In this document: in pieces, positions 20,196-27,655 of the stretch
Position numbering within the stretch: the stretch's first letter is position 1
Layout of the letters: each line of letters starts with the position of its first letter
NCBI GenBank assembly: GCA_964649915.1
Contig: CAZYQZ010000001.1
Coordinates: forward strand, 1-27,857
Direction: 5' to 3'
Origin: an uncultured Gammaproteobacteria bacterium
Lineage (GTDB): Bacteria > Patescibacteriota > Microgenomatia > 2-02-FULL-39-11
Length of the DNA stretch: 27,857 bases
Notes under the pieces: model-generated
Told to the model about the DNA's origin: nothing
Database searches by the model: none
What the model saw: only the letters and a program-made list of their open reading frames with translations
Program-made: the position numbers and the translations under genes

Positions 20196-21119
20196 GTGCA
20201 ACTACAGCATTGGATGAAAAAGGAACATTCCGGCCTCGCCGCCACGACGCTGGAGCTGGTCAAGTACGAAGAACGGATCGGGCATCAGGTCGAGGTCCGG
20301 CAACCGGGAGAGGACAATGTCCTGTACGGTGGCGTGACCAACCCCGACATTCATCTGGTCCATAGCCAGCTCGGGATGAAGGCGTACCACGACGGCAAGC
20401 CGAAAGTGATGTGGATGCACGGCGAACCGATCTCCAGCGTCGGCAACGGCATCAGTATGAAAGCGATCTGCGACCTGGCGCCGTCCATGGACGCCTTTAT
20501 CGCCATGCGCAAAGACGAAATGCCGATCTGGAGTTCGATCAAGCGCACGTTCCTGGTCCCCAAAGGGATTGACCTGGAGAAGTTCAAGCCATTGGGCGCG
20601 AACGTGAACAAACTGGAAGGCTCCCCCGCTGTCCTCTATTACGAGAACTGGCGCGGGCAACGGAATCCGCTCTATGTCTGTCGGGCCATGGAAGAGGTCT
20701 TTAAGAAGTACCCGGACGCACGACTGCATCTGGTGAACTGCAAAGACCAGAAGATGAAAGAGACGTTCCAGGCCATGATTAAGCAATGTAAATGGTGGCC
20801 GTTTATTCGCACCCTCATGGGGCCGGTGACGGACGTGAACGCGGTCCTGAACAAAGCCGATATTGTCGTCAGCGGCCTGTTCCCGCTCTATGCCCGTGGC
20901 ATCGAAGCCTTTGGGGCTGGCAAAGCCTTTATCGGGGCAGGCTACAAGGAGCATGACTACCCGTTCACCTGTGACTATGAACCGCTCAGTATGGCCAACG
21001 CCATTATCAAGTGTTATGAAAATTACGATACTGTAAATTATAGACAATGGGCAGAAAAGCACCACAACGTTGAAGAAACCGTGCGTCAATCACTGGCAAT
21101 ATATAACAGATACCTTTAA
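20196..21119 (+). CDS. Glycosyltransferase, GT-B fold (GT4-like)
   Basis: 307 aa, GGAGGAG SD and GTG start. Motifs VPKGIDLEKFKP and ADIVVS...GIEAFGAGKAFI (E-x-x-x-x-G-x-P-like). Soluble. Confidence 0.82.
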   Translation: MQLQHWMKKEHSGLAATTLELVKYEERIGHQVEVRQPGEDNVLYGGVTNPDIHLVHSQLGMKAYHDGKPKVMWMHGEPISSVGNGISMKAICDLAPSMDAFIAMRKDEMPIWSSIKRTFLVPKGIDLEKFKPLGANVNKLEGSPAVLYYENWRGQRNPLYVCRAMEEVFKKYPDARLHLVNCKDQKMKETFQAMIKQCKWWPFIRTLMGPVTDVNAVLNKADIVVSGLFPLYARGIEAFGAGKAFIGAGYKEHDYPFTCDYEPLSMANAIIKCYENYDTVNYRQWAEKHHNVEETVRQSLAIYNRYL

Positions 21120-21667
21120 CTAACGGATATCCAATTAACATTTCTTACTATAGCACTAATGGTTGGCTGAGAAACGCCGAAGAGGTTAGCGACAGCCAGT
21201 TGTGTCTTGCCAGCCTTGCACAGTCGTCGTATCTCTACAACCTCATTAACGTCCAATTTTGCAGCCCCAGCTCTAACCCCAGTCGCATATCTCCCGTTTT
21301 TCGCCATATCCTGTTTATTTGCCATTGGAGAATCCCATCTCAAATTTTCTATAGCATTATTCATAGCGTTGTCATCAGCGTGGCATGCCTGGCTCCCTGG
21401 TGGGCATGGGCCAACAAATGCCTCCAGAACAATTCTGTGGATGTAAGCTTTAATAGACCTCCCGTTTTTGCGAAGGTAAACATGCAGATGAGAGCTTCTG
21501 GAACTGTTTTTGGCAGGTCTCAACTTCCTCCATGCGGAAGATATTTGCCCCCATCTCCCCTGCACCTTGCAGGACCAGATATGCCCATCATTAGAAACGG
21601 CATACCCTGGCCAGTTATTAAGTTCTACTATCTTCACACCATTGATAATGGGAAGTTCTAGTTTCAT
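21116..21667 (-). CDS. Antisense HNH homing endonuclease (NUMOD4 + HNH + C-terminal HTH)
   Basis: WPGYAVSNDGHIWS (NUMOD4), IHRIVLEAF...CHADDNAMNNAIENLRW (HNH) and LFGVSQPTISAI (HTH). AT-rich. ATG 21667 is preferred over TTG 21703 because of the promoter geometry. Confidence 0.9.
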   Translation of the reverse strand: MKLELPIINGVKIVELNNWPGYAVSNDGHIWSCKVQGRWGQISSAWRKLRPAKNSSRSSHLHVYLRKNGRSIKAYIHRIVLEAFVGPCPPGSQACHADDNAMNNAIENLRWDSPMANKQDMAKNGRYATGVRAGAAKLDVNEVVEIRRLCKAGKTQLAVANLFGVSQPTISAIVRNVNWISVS

Positions 21668-21673
21668 GGGAGA

Positions 21674-21703
21674 ACTATATAGCAATGAGGGCTGAGTTTG
21701 CAA
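21674..21703 (-). promoter_or_regulatory. Putative sigma70 promoter for the antisense HNH gene (leaderless)
   Basis: Minus strand TTGCAA (21703-21698) - 18 nt - TATAGT (21679-21674) - 6 nt - ATG 21667. The -35 box lies inside the methyltransferase codons. Confidence 0.55.
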
Positions 21704-24005: not shown

Positions 24006-24199
24006 TTATTGTCTGGTCCTACTGGAATAAGGAGCAAGGCCAATGGGGCACGAACGTGACCTGGGCGGTTTCCTCGAACGCCTCGGCTGGAGACGGGGGA
24101 GTGCCAGCGACGGTCGAGGTGCAGCGCAAGATTGCCCCGATAATGAACCGCTTCAAGCGACGGCCACCGAAAGGAACAACACGGACATGGGGACGTTAG
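24002..24199 (+). CDS. Small hypothetical protein
   Basis: 65 aa, ATGA overlap with the upstream gene, W-rich N-terminus and basic C-terminus. Confidence 0.6.
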   Translation: MIIVWSYWNKEQGQWGTNVTWAVSSNASAGDGGVPATVEVQRKIAPIMNRFKRRPPKGTTRTWGR

Positions 24200-24396
24200 C
24201 CGATACCCGAGACGCCTTGAAAGACCCCGCCATTGCCAGGCGTGCCGCCTGGTGGGCGCAGAAGTATAACGAGGACCGGACGCAGACCAAGGACCAGCGC
24301 CAGCGCAAGATCCAGGACCATCTGATGCGTGAATTCCCCCTAGACCGGAAAGTCGCCCGTGGCTTGGTCACGTATGCGACCAGAGAGTGGGTATGA
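24187..24396 (+). CDS. Small hypothetical protein (69 aa; start revised to 24187)
   Basis: MGTLADTRDALKDPAIARRAAWWAQK..., with AAAGGA upstream of ATG 24187. Confidence 0.7.
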   Translation: MGTLADTRDALKDPAIARRAAWWAQKYNEDRTQTKDQRQRKIQDHLMREFPLDRKVARGLVTYATREWV

Positions 24397-24400
24397 GCAG

Positions 24401-25021
24401 CTACGCAGAATTTCTCTTCATGGCGCGAGCAGCTACCCCTTTCATCGCAAAGGCAATCCGCTGTTCTGGCGTGAGATTAGCAAAAGCTTCTCTCTTTAGT
24501 TTGCTCATTCTTGCTCTATCTTCTTCGGTCCATATTCTTGGTGTTGCCATAACCCGCGCTTTAGCCAGAGAGATACGGGCTTTAGCCCGCCATTGCTCGG
24601 TAGCTGTCATGGCTTTACATCTGGCTGTCAATTTCTCCAGATGCTCCTTGCTGAAGGATCTTTTCTTGCCTCTCGTTGCATCGCCAATCTTTTTGCGCGT
24701 CTCATCTGACGGGTTCCTCAACCCATCTCCTCCTTTAGTGCCGTTCGTTAAAGAGGCCCCGACAAATTTCATATATTGTATCCAGAACATTTCTGCTTCC
24801 TCCCACTGGTCATCGCGCACTTCCTCAATAACAAATACCTCTGGCTTTAACCCAGAGGCAAGCAACCCTCTTATCCAATTGTTCTTGTACGTGACAGGTC
24901 TCAACTGGCTGTCACATAGATGTGCATACTTTCGCTTGGTAGGGTTCTTGGACTTGCCGACGTATCGGATATGGCCAGTGCGTGGGTCTATTAGACCGTA
25001 TATAAATACGTTAGATGCCAC
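24401..25021 (-). CDS. Antisense GIY-YIG homing endonuclease with NUMOD3-like motif
   Basis: FIYGLIDP...RYVGKS, conserved R and E...E..WI...LTN, then NPSDETRKKIG. AT-rich, GTG start. Confidence 0.9.
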   Translation of the reverse strand: MASNVFIYGLIDPRTGHIRYVGKSKNPTKRKYAHLCDSQLRPVTYKNNWIRGLLASGLKPEVFVIEEVRDDQWEEAEMFWIQYMKFVGASLTNGTKGGDGLRNPSDETRKKIGDATRGKKRSFSKEHLEKLTARCKAMTATEQWRAKARISLAKARVMATPRIWTEEDRARMSKLKREAFANLTPEQRIAFAMKGVAARAMKRNSA

Positions 25022-25026
25022 GTCAT

Positions 25027-25056
25027 ATTATGGGGGTGCAACAGCTTGAATGTCAA
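25027..25056 (-). promoter_or_regulatory. Putative sigma70 promoter for the antisense GIY-YIG gene (leaderless)
   Basis: Minus strand TTGACA (25056-25051) - 18 nt - CATAAT (25032-25027) - 5 nt - GTG 25021. The -35 box is the complement of the adaptor gene's aTG TCA Aca. Confidence 0.65.
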
Positions 25057-26075
25057 CAACTTCTCAAGTAACTGATTTCCTAGACATTTATACCGACTTA
25101 CAGAATCGTGTTCGAGTGGCAACTGGGGTGACAGCTACGTCTAACCAGGCTAAACGGTACTGCAATATCGCTTTGCAAGACATCCATATCGGCACCGATT
25201 ACGTGTTCCCCTGGACCGAACGCCGGGCCTTTCTCACGACCAAGGCCCCGTACACGACCGGCACGGTCTCCATTGCGGCCGGGAGCTTGTCTTTGACCGG
25301 ATCCGGCACGGCCTGGAATACGGCTAATACCTATAACCAGAATAACCTGCGCGTGGGTTCAAAACTCACCATCGCTGGAGCCACCGACATCTACCGCGTG
25401 TCAGCCGTCTCTGGCGATACCGCCGCGACGCTTGAGACCCGGTACGTCGCCTCCAGCGATGCTTCGTCCGCTGAGTATCGGGCGTTTGAAGATGAATACG
25501 CCCTGGCGAGCGACTTTCTCCGGCCGATTGACTTTGCCTTGTTCAGCACGGATTGGAATATTCCCCTGCTGGACCGCAAGGAATTTCGCCGGTTGCATAC
25601 GCGGGGCAATATCAGTGGCAGACCCACGTCGGCTTCGATCCTGGACCTGTCCTTTAGCGGGTCCACCACGCCCGTGCGTAAGGTCGTGTTCTACCCCTAT
25701 CCGGACCAGACCTACATTATCCCCTACTCGTATGTGACCAGTAACCTGGTCGTCACCAGCGCCGGGGTCGAACAATCGGCCATGTCCAGCGACACGGATG
25801 AGCCCATGATGCCGCTCCGGTACCGGCACATTATCGTACTCCATGCCCTCGCTAACTGGTATCGGGACAAGCGCGATGACGCCCGCAGCCAGGAGGCGAA
25901 GGCTGAGTTTGGCGAGCTGATGAGCCGGATGATTGCCGACCACGATATGGGCACGCACAATCGGGTCCGTATCCAGCCGAATGAAGGACTGTACCGTGCT
26001 CATGCCGTGCGGCCGTACCGGCGACAGGGCGGGACCCGGTACTCGATCAATAACCGTTTTGATAGCTTCCGATAA
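25050..26075 (+). CDS. Probable head-tail adaptor / tail tubular protein A with inserted beta-domain
   Basis: 341 aa with a helical N-terminus (AKRYCNIALQDI), EYALASDF, FYPYPD and P..YRHIIV..AL..Y...D motifs typical of P22 gp4 / T7 gp11-like adaptors. Confidence 0.72.
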   Translation: MSTTSQVTDFLDIYTDLQNRVRVATGVTATSNQAKRYCNIALQDIHIGTDYVFPWTERRAFLTTKAPYTTGTVSIAAGSLSLTGSGTAWNTANTYNQNNLRVGSKLTIAGATDIYRVSAVSGDTAATLETRYVASSDASSAEYRAFEDEYALASDFLRPIDFALFSTDWNIPLLDRKEFRRLHTRGNISGRPTSASILDLSFSGSTTPVRKVVFYPYPDQTYIIPYSYVTSNLVVTSAGVEQSAMSSDTDEPMMPLRYRHIIVLHALANWYRDKRDDARSQEAKAEFGELMSRMIADHDMGTHNRVRIQPNEGLYRAHAVRPYRRQGGTRYSINNRFDSFR

Positions 26076-26077
26076 CC

Positions 26078-27655
26078 ATGCCACAACAACGCTCACAATT
26101 CGTGACTCACCAATTTTCTGGCGGCTGGGCTACGGACTTTGGCCCGACCTATTACGGCGCACCGGACGGCACGGCCATGAAGCTGCCCTGGCTCAATACT
26201 GCCACGAACGTAGTCTATGAGTTCGACGGCGGCCCTCGCAAAGCGCCGGGCACGAATAAACTCAATGCCAGCGTCATCGAGTCCTCCCAGACCGTCACGG
26301 GCATCTATGATTACTGGCGGCTCGGGACCGGCGCGACCCCGTCCCAGCGCCGGGTCGTGCATGTCAACGATAAAATCTACCACGACGGCGGCACCGGCTC
26401 CTTTTCAAGCTTGACAAGTGGGCTTGAAGTCGGTACAATCCCGCACTATAGCACGTTTAATGACCTGCTCATTATCGGGTCAAGCAGTACCACGGACGTG
26501 CCGAAATCGTGGGATCAGTCCACGTTCCAAAATCTCGCAGGCTCCCCACCCCGCTTCAGTTTCAGTATCAAGCACCAGGGCAAGCAATGGGCCGCTGGCA
26601 ACTGGGCGGTTCCGTACCGGCTCTATTACAGCGTCACGGGCAACCCTGAAGACTGGACCAGTACCGGCTCCGGGTCGATTGATATTGACCCAGGCGACGG
26701 AGACCGGATCGTGGGCTTATTCTCCTGGCGGAACGAACTCTGGGTCTTTAAGGGGCCGAATAAGCTCAGTATCCACCGCATTACTGGGGCCACCCCCAGC
26801 ACATTTGCTAGAGCCACCTTCACAGAAGGGATTAGTGCGGCGAACCAGTCGTGCATCTTCCCGATGGGCGATGATGTCGGGTTCGTCTCCCCGCGTGGCA
26901 CGATCCATTCGCTGAAGACCACCTCCAACTATGGTGATTATGTCCAGTCGTATATCAATTACCCGATCTTAAGTTGGTGCCGCGATTATATGAACCAAGG
27001 CCGGGCTCAGTATTGGCAGGCGGCAACTGATCATTTGCGTGGGTATACGCTGGTTACGTTCCCATTGTCCGGGGTCACGAACAATACCCGCTGTCTCATG
27101 ATGGATTGGCGCTTCCTCGCGCAAGGGGAACCGTACCCGCGCTGGGCCTTGTGGGACTTTGCCTCACTGGCCTCATTGGGGTATGGGCTCGATACCAGCA
27201 ACCGCCCGAGAATCTTCGCGGGAGGCTATAACGGCTACGTCTACCGGCTCGATCAATCAACGCGCTCGCACAATAGCACCAGCATTAATTACAACGTGAA
27301 AACTCCGTTTCTGACCTACGGCAGCGAATACGAGACGAAAACCGTCAACGTCGCTAGTGTCGGTATGGCCCCTCGCTCCAGCACGAATACCTCTACGTTT
27401 GGCTGGACCAGAGATAGCGCGGCCGAACAAACCACGACGTTTACACAACGCGCCGGGGGCACGTTCGGCACGGCCGTGTTCGGGACCGATGTTTTTGGCG
27501 GGTCATCCTTTACGCAGCGGTTCATGGAATTGGAAACTGGCGGTGACTTCCGCAGTATCCAGTACCGGATCAGCGACAACAACAACGACGGTGACTTGGA
27601 AGTCCATAATCTTGGCGCGGTTCTGACCGGAACCGGCTACAGCACGGAGAACTAA
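26078..27655 (+). CDS. Probable tail hub / tail tubular protein B (P22 gp10-like beta-propeller)
   Basis: 525 aa starting with QFSGGW. Propeller-like blades (LYYSVTGNPEDWT, IVGL..WRNELWVFK), located directly after the adaptor. Confidence 0.75.
   Translation: MPQQRSQFVTHQFSGGWATDFGPTYYGAPDGTAMKLPWLNTATNVVYEFDGGPRKAPGTNKLNASVIESSQTVTGIYDYWRLGTGATPSQRRVVHVNDKIYHDGGTGSFSSLTSGLEVGTIPHYSTFNDLLIIGSSSTTDVPKSWDQSTFQNLAGSPPRFSFSIKHQGKQWAAGNWAVPYRLYYSVTGNPEDWTSTGSGSIDIDPGDGDRIVGLFSWRNELWVFKGPNKLSIHRITGATPSTFARATFTEGISAANQSCIFPMGDDVGFVSPRGTIHSLKTTSNYGDYVQSYINYPILSWCRDYMNQGRAQYWQAATDHLRGYTLVTFPLSGVTNNTRCLMMDWRFLAQGEPYPRWALWDFASLASLGYGLDTSNRPRIFAGGYNGYVYRLDQSTRSHNSTSINYNVKTPFLTYGSEYETKTVNVASVGMAPRSSTNTSTFGWTRDSAAEQTTTFTQRAGGTFGTAVFGTDVFGGSSFTQRFMELETGGDFRSIQYRISDNNNDGDLEVHNLGAVLTGTGYSTEN

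Follow-up and report, generated by a model that had tools for sequence, protein, structure and literature searches.

How can a selfish nuclease gene be expressed when it lies antisense to a late structural operon, and how did the promoter-like site in front of it come to overlap the first codons of the neighbouring adaptor gene? The locus that raises these questions is contained in the window, by which is meant the whole stretch of DNA analysed here, bases 1-27857 of the 37979 that make up a phage contig (C1 of assembly G000). The GC content of the contig is 57%, compared to 39% in the other 196 contigs, and the tetranucleotide correlation is -0.43; it is a phage contig that was mis-binned in a 39%-GC genome. 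The bin is therefore uninformative on the host, and a host assignment read from it was ruled out by the same two measures. The elements of the locus are as follows.

24043-24396, plus strand: upstream gene of 117 aa, from the ORF list; it stops at a TGA (24394-24396) that forms an ATGA overlap with the old adaptor ATG.

24393-24401, plus strand: the relic start, ATGAGCAGC (M-S-S), left from the ancestral adaptor gene; in three relatives (L083-L085) that gene opens with the same 9 nt.

24401-25021, minus strand: free-standing GIY-YIG homing endonuclease gene of 206 aa with a GTG start (25021) and no SD (Pfam, PHROG and an alignment of homologues, A2).

25032-25027, minus strand: -10-like hexamer CATAAT, 5 nt before the GTG; the two divergent starts are 28 nt apart, and the hexamer lies between them.

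25056-25051, minus strand: -35 hexamer TTGACA, complementary to adaptor codons 1-3 (aTG TCA Aca).

25050-26075, plus strand: probable SU10-type head-tail adaptor gene of 341 aa (Pfam PF24175, E=1.2e-5).

25050-25180, plus strand: 5' tract of the adaptor gene, recoded and probably acquired by co-conversion (identity, GC3 and difference counts against L083).

The nuclease matches the PHROG 'homing endonuclease' profile (E=2e-6) and Pfam GIY-YIG (PF01541, E=3e-4), the latter with 21.5 bits, just below the curated cut-off of 22.6 bits, and a PDB sequence search returned no match. The GIY-YIG catalytic motifs (GIY, YIG, and the catalytic Arg, Glu and Asn) are present with all catalytic positions invariant, and the residues conserved without exception across the 15-16 homologues of alignment A2 are I7 Y8, R19 Y20 G22, R30, H34, E77 and N93. 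GTG 25021 is taken as the real start because the homologues begin at a like distance from the FIYGL motif, 3-6 residues ahead of it and in several cases more. The GC3 of the gene is 0.50. Relative to the copy in a second nuclease-bearing genome (L087), the pN/pS of the ORF is 0.14, which points to purifying selection, and the gene is therefore presumably expressed. The sequence-only reading had described a selfish gene running antisense to the structural genes, and the orientation, the invariant catalytic residues and the low pN/pS all agree with that description.

The adaptor assignment is similarly close to a threshold, with the PF24175 match at 26.2 bits just under the cut-off of 27, and many close homologues carry a precomputed PF24175 hit. 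The order of the genes, with the adaptor followed by a nozzle-like gene, fits that of SU10 (PMC9509320). The search for adaptor homologues returned 1223, from which 84 loci were fetched; in the viral_contigs collection, the adaptor recovered only one truncated locus, and relatives of the nuclease sought in viral_contigs and genome_contigs were not found. The DNA of the locus had no match among 50,697 phage records. Four sequencing runs were also covered, all in the form of Logan contigs without direction and one of them from an RNA library.

Comparison to relatives that lack the nuclease indicates what the site looked like before insertion. The five closest of these (L003 and L083-L086) are 89-92% identical to the window in the adaptor body, and in each of them the stop of the upstream gene overlaps the adaptor start (ATGA), with the start reading ATGAGCAGC or ATGAGTACC and the L083-type junction containing …GGGCATGAGCAGCACGTCACAAGTC…. 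In L003 and L083-L085, the gene that directly adjoins the adaptor is the same 117-aa upstream gene. The nuclease is absent from all five and present in the window, in L087 and in a contig from a drinking-water run (X8), in each case at the identical junction, 24393. The genes on the far side of this junction differ: the upstream gene of L087 is unrelated, with the relic kept as ATGAGTAGC, and in X8 the junction is joined to a third, L086-like upstream gene. From exactly 24393 to ~25132, the window and L087 are ~97% identical, diverging beyond. The relic in the window overlaps the stop of the upstream gene on one side and the stop codon of the nuclease on the other, and the working adaptor start, ATGTCAACA, lies 657 nt beyond the start of the relic.

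The 5' end of the adaptor gene has a history distinct from the remainder of the gene. Identity to L083 is 77% in the first 131 nt and 92% in the rest, which corresponds to 14-17 differences per 60 nt over the first 120 nt and ~4 thereafter, and nearly all of the changes in the recoded tract are synonymous. GC3 is 0.40 over codons 1-40 and 0.74 after. A relative only 52% identical in protein matches the recoded tract as well as L083 does. The serine codon TCA at position 2 had been singled out previously as unusual in these genes, and it does account for only 10% of Ser codons in the plus-strand genes, but it is not an isolated oddity; codons 2-5 (TCA ACA ACT TCT) are all rare (10%, 8%, 6% and 7%, respectively).

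Since the recoded tract, the L087 block and the X8 junction all coincide with the presence of the nuclease, the new start belongs to the travelling unit. As delimited by these comparisons, that unit is the interval from 24393 to ~25130-25180 and includes, besides the relic and the nuclease gene, the 28-nt gap in which the -10 box lies, the new start, which holds the -35 box, and ~100-130 nt of adaptor codons. A divergent flank inherited with the nuclease is thus found (77% against 92%, and L087 ~97% identical to ~25132), and a unit of this composition is what co-conversion during homing would produce. The view that the promoter was written into a pre-existing essential start codon does not survive this comparison, as the start, the gap and the ~100-130 nt of codons came with the nuclease and the old start is the relic.

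The promoter-like site was confirmed in both sequence and coordinates. The minus strand reads TTGACA, 18 nt, CATAAT, ATGAC (5 nt) and then GTG 25021, the TTGACA is the complement of the adaptor aTG TCA Aca (ATG 25050-25052), and, as had been claimed, no GGAG-like SD occurs in the 20 nt before the GTG. The adaptor SD had been placed between the two boxes, and a candidate does occur there, a run of five G (25032-25036), but at 13 nt before the ATG it is weak and poorly spaced. The -35 and -10 hexamers fall within the spacer range of 16-18 nt expected for a primary sigma factor, and in a consensus scan the site matches 11/12 positions of the sigma-70-type consensus, which may not be that of the host. 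This is the top score in the window, tied with one other site. The pattern TTGACA-N15-19-NATAAT occurs once against 0.03 expected, and sites with at least 11/12 matches occur twice against 0.14 expected per window; at local composition their rate is ~0.01 per kb per strand, which gives a chance of ~0.001 for a right-strand site within 100 nt of the nuclease start.

Part of this match can be traced to the adaptor protein. Because the protein begins M-S-(T/S), part of the -35 'comes free', and at least 5/6 of TTGACA is already present at the same position in 17/65 (26%) distinct nuclease-free adaptor 5' ends. None of the 65 reaches 11/12 over the full site and one reaches 10/12. As judged from these counts, what stands out here is the presence of a -10 box and its spacing from the GTG, rather than the -35. 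The expectation that nuclease-free relatives would lack the ATGTCAA start held, with ATGAGC or ATGAGT in the five close relatives and ATGTCAA in only 1/65 of the distinct 5' ends. CATAAT is identical in L087 and in the X8 variant; box conservation carries little weight because the three nuclease-bearing copies (window, L087 and X8) are so highly similar.

The geometry of the site resembles that of leaderless mRNAs, such as that of lambda cI from PRM and those of many actinobacterial and some alphaproteobacterial genes, in having a -10 box 5-7 nt before the start and no SD; it differs in that the start codon is GUG and not AUG. Leaderless translation in E. coli strongly prefers AUG, while GUG is tolerated in some other phyla; the start is GTG in both the window and L087, such that the 5'-terminal AUG required in E. 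coli is lacking. Counted from the -10 box, the modal transcription start is the 7th nt, and the G of GTG 25021 is the 6th, one short of the usual position; an SD is lacking, and initiation at 25019 would remove part of the codon. The 18-nt spacer is suboptimal and also counts against a promoter. An alternative -10 box, TAATAT (25030-25025), was rejected, as it matches only 4/6 positions and would start the transcript inside the ORF. A 258-nt contig with 100% identity to 24874-25131, from a wastewater library labelled RNA-Seq, crosses the predicted minus-strand start; it is directionless and could be DNA carry-over, and it does not decide for or against a start there.

Evidence from outside the locus is provided by other nuclease genes that lie antisense in this window and in related phages.

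21116-21667, minus strand: HNH nuclease with a C-terminal HTH and an ATG at 21667 (Pfam HNH_3, E=2e-10; PHROG HNH, E=2e-32).

21674-21703, minus strand: promoter-like site of the HNH gene, TTGCAA, 18 nt, TATAGT, 6 nt, ATG, with no SD (consensus scan).

L010:4034-4519, L029:697-1191, L034:1206-1655, L037:1048-1554 and L056:2483-2989, minus strand: antisense HNH genes between adaptor and nozzle in the loci of relatives.

The HNH gene of the window is absent from L083, where the flanking genes abut. The A of its ATG is exactly at the 7th nt after the -10-like box, and the ATG of the methyltransferase gene on the other side (21685) lies in the spacer of the promoter-like site. Here too the 5' end of the neighbour is divergent, with 19 differences to L083 in the first 60 nt of the methyltransferase gene and 4-5 in each of the next two 60-nt segments. 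Among the relatives, -10-like boxes occur 7-8 nt before ATGs that lack an SD, as TATAAT (L037/L056), TATACT (L029) and TATTAT (L010). The antisense HNH of L034, with a normal SD and its -10-like box at a distance of 21 nt, counts against a leaderless rule. In total, a -10-like box 6-8 nt before an SD-less start is found at 4/5 other independent antisense nucleases (the window HNH and those of the relatives), and adding the window GIY-YIG gene, with its 5 nt, gives 5/6. The same geometry occurs in 0/23 ordinary plus-strand genes and at 1-3% of random positions, and ordinary minus-strand phage genes have strong SDs. The predicted leaderless promoter for the antisense nuclease is therefore well supported by comparison, and this part of the sequence-only reading was strengthened.

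Antisense nucleases of this phage group have a second hotspot at the adaptor-nozzle junction. Whether AT-rich recoding at the 5' end of the downstream gene occurs only alongside a nuclease was also examined, and this held only in part: the lowest GC among nozzle 5' ends is found in L037, L056 and L029, but the nuclease-free L039 has almost the same codons as L037.

The nearest homologues of the window nuclease (48-54% identity) occupy the same site in the opposite orientation, immediately upstream of adaptor genes and in the sense direction.

L088:1239-1811, L089:2693-3229 and L090:1023-1775, sense: GIY-YIG homologues that begin with a duplicate of the adaptor codons.

The first 3-7 codons of these genes duplicate the N-terminus of the adaptor (e.g., MSTTQLT in L089), and the adaptor beside them has a new start, in a copy with synonymous changes, located at the 3' end of the nuclease or slightly within it. 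In L089, the nuclease starts ATG AGC ACA ACG CAA CTC ACG and the adaptor restarts ATG TCT ACA ACC CAA CTG ACC. A normal SD is present in two of the three (L089 and L090). Since the sense nucleases are fused to the first codons of the adaptor, the family is inserted just a few codons down the adaptor ORF and takes over the initiation signals there; the window nuclease, as an inverted copy, cannot use them.

The reading favoured here, to which we assign a probability of about 0.6, is that a GIY-YIG cassette lies antisense within a podophage adaptor gene, a few codons from its 5' end, travels with a replacement start for that gene and is predicted to use a leaderless promoter of the host type. 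The recoded tract would be a co-conversion flank from a donor of lower GC; such a flank could make the genome immune to its own nuclease and may alter the nuclease's own target. Sense members of the family borrow the adaptor start and first 3-7 codons, and in two of three cases the SD as well, an arrangement that the inverted copy has lost. Antisense to a late operon, the inverted nuclease needs its own promoter, and host RNA polymerase with the primary sigma factor would initiate from TTGACA-18-CATAAT at or next to the G of GTG 25021. The resulting mRNA would have neither leader nor SD and would probably be translated poorly, as would suit a nuclease required at low dose. As a leaderless promoter must fit the 28 nt between the divergent starts, its -35 box falls in the first codons of the neighbour, where the M-S-T codons supply 4-5/6 of the hexamer and TCA completes it. 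Given that M-S-(T/S) yields at least 5/6 in 26% of nuclease-free genomes, the promoter probably grew on pre-adapted sequence.

The same 26% can be read against a promoter altogether. It is possible, though we consider it unlikely, that the site is a by-product of composition in which M-S-T codons and an AT-rich gap mimic a promoter, with the nuclease silent or expressed from rare read-through or distant antisense transcripts. The T4 segD gene, for which no promoter was found, sets a precedent, and read-through or a distant antisense origin has been proposed for it (PMC2988022). The second 11/12 site in the window (26411-26439, plus strand; TTGACA, 17 nt, TACAAT) lies inside the nozzle-like gene with no obvious downstream start, and its stretch is not conserved in L003, L083, L084 or L086, so near-consensus matches can arise without an obvious role. 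A by-product is harder to reconcile with the absence of any 11/12 match, and a single 10/12 match, among the 65 nuclease-free 5' ends, with the ~0.001 chance of a right-strand site this close to the start, with the recurrence of the -10-to-start geometry at 4/5 other independent antisense nucleases and 0/23 controls, and with the purifying selection on the ORF, which implies expression.

A further reading concerns how the adaptor itself is translated downstream of the insert.

24393-25049, plus strand: open frame of 218 codons (the bridge ORF), which begins at the relic ATG, crosses the antisense nuclease and closes with a TGA (25047-25049) immediately before the adaptor ATG (TGAATG).

The bridge ORF contains 0 stops against 2.9-3.5 expected from synonymous permutation of the nuclease gene (P=0.008-0.02) and is open in L087 too, which hints at translational coupling or may be chance. 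On a fuller version, which is doubtful to a similar degree as the compositional by-product, the locus would be an inverted form of the start-hijacking nuclease that combines a leaderless promoter on the recoded start, a bridge ORF headed by the relic and UGA-AUG termination-reinitiation to the adaptor. If true, ribosomes would stay on the late mRNA across the 650-nt insert, such that Rho polarity would not arise, and termination-reinitiation from the bridge ORF would offset the poor adaptor SD. The proposal that a bridge ORF accompanies every antisense nuclease was rejected, as the corresponding frames contain 3-14 stops in L010, L029, L034 and L037; they are open at both window nucleases. The frame opposite the HNH gene (21107-21661, plus strand) is open for 184 codons between stops, and 24 nt separate its end from the methyltransferase ATG, with no canonical start until TTG 21200. 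Because this frame is codon-aligned, the permutation test is inapplicable to it.

The earlier proposal for the significance of the overlap was entrenchment, in which a promoter overlaid on the essential adaptor start is protected by selection on the adaptor and so cannot easily be lost; this now appears improbable. The overlap is physically real, as the TG of the ATG accounts for positions 5-6 of the -35 and changes at positions 1, 3 and 4 are non-synonymous, and embedded promoters in T4 have been held to favour nuclease retention, but those are host-gene promoters inside nuclease genes (PMC2988022). The -10 lies in the 28-nt gap outside both genes (though inside the unproven bridge ORF) and is, as far as the two genes go, free to mutate. 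Position 2 of the -35 falls on a third codon base where changes are synonymous, and the adaptor works with other codons, with Ser2 encoded by AGC, AGT, TCC, TCT and TCG in relatives. The start and the surrounding tract arrived with the nuclease and did not predate it, recombination with nuclease-free relatives could remove the whole unit, and the 28-nt spacing forces an overlap in any case. Least probable of all is that the site is mainly regulatory, as an operator for I-TevI-like self-repression of the nuclease or a source of antisense RNA modulating the late genes: the promoter does overlap the adaptor 5' end, whose counterpart in nuclease-free genomes is the presumed homing site, and I-TevI autorepression at an operator overlapping its own promoter is documented (PMC2988022), but the sequence offers nothing to tell an operator from a plain promoter, and regulation would add to the leaderless-promoter explanation rather than replace it.

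The leaderless-promoter reading has its closest parallels in T4. As with segD, which lies between genes 23 and 24, the window nuclease is a free-standing GIY-YIG gene that runs counter to a late operon of essential structural genes (PMC2988022). T4 has no other antisense nuclease gene, and segD lacks an identifiable promoter and is presumed to have a very low transcript level (PMC2988022). segD has an RBS-like sequence and sits between genes; the window gene, in contrast, is placed inside the first codons of its neighbour, and its SD-less start directly adjoins a near-consensus promoter of the host type. The nuclease-specific promoters of T4 are middle or late, and co-conversion of flanks is standard (PMC2988022); the fixed-site presence and absence and the divergent flank inherited with the nuclease likewise recall the intronless homing of SegF, SegG and MobE (PMC2988022). 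The seg and mob genes lie between genes or split them (as mobE does in Aeh1 nrdA), whereas the insert here is within the target ORF with the start duplicated, and homing here is predicted.

The sharing of regulatory and coding sequence between a nuclease and an essential neighbour is also seen for the gene 32 promoters inside segG, where it has been argued to favour retention (PMC2988022). The polarity here is reversed, as the promoter of the nuclease lies over the start of the host gene, and the retention argument is weak because the key -10 element is outside both genes. The overlap between a GIY-YIG nuclease promoter and homing-site-related sequence, presumed here, is shared with I-TevI (PMC2988022), which differs from the window nuclease in being intron-encoded and sense-oriented, with an SD sequestered in a hairpin and a T4 late promoter. 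What is variant in the window is that several features come together: the gene is antisense, its promoter is of the host type, its mRNA is probably leaderless, and it is inserted in the first codons of the target, whose start is duplicated and recoded.

The expression programme of a phage is tightly packed, and free-standing homing endonucleases have to find a place in it; in the best-studied case, T4, only one of them does not point the same way as its neighbours. The comparisons above suggest a recurrent solution for antisense copies in late operons, a host-type promoter set against an SD-less start and reaching into the recoded 5' end of the neighbour. One nuclease family occupies one target site in both orientations, with the sense copies fused to the target start and the antisense copy self-promoted, and this natural orientation pair makes the acquisition of expression signals by selfish nucleases directly testable. 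It also carries a warning for annotation, in that odd 5' codons of a gene can be the footprint of a neighbouring mobile element.

Within the GIY-YIG ORF, on its own sense strand, a terminator-like hairpin occurs at 24836-24860 (minus strand), with a 9-bp stem followed by TTTGTTATTG, ~160 nt from the nuclease start. Terminator-like sites in the region are not above chance in number. The only difference in L087 keeps the pairing (U-A to U-G), and the hairpin recalls the internal terminator of T4 mobE.
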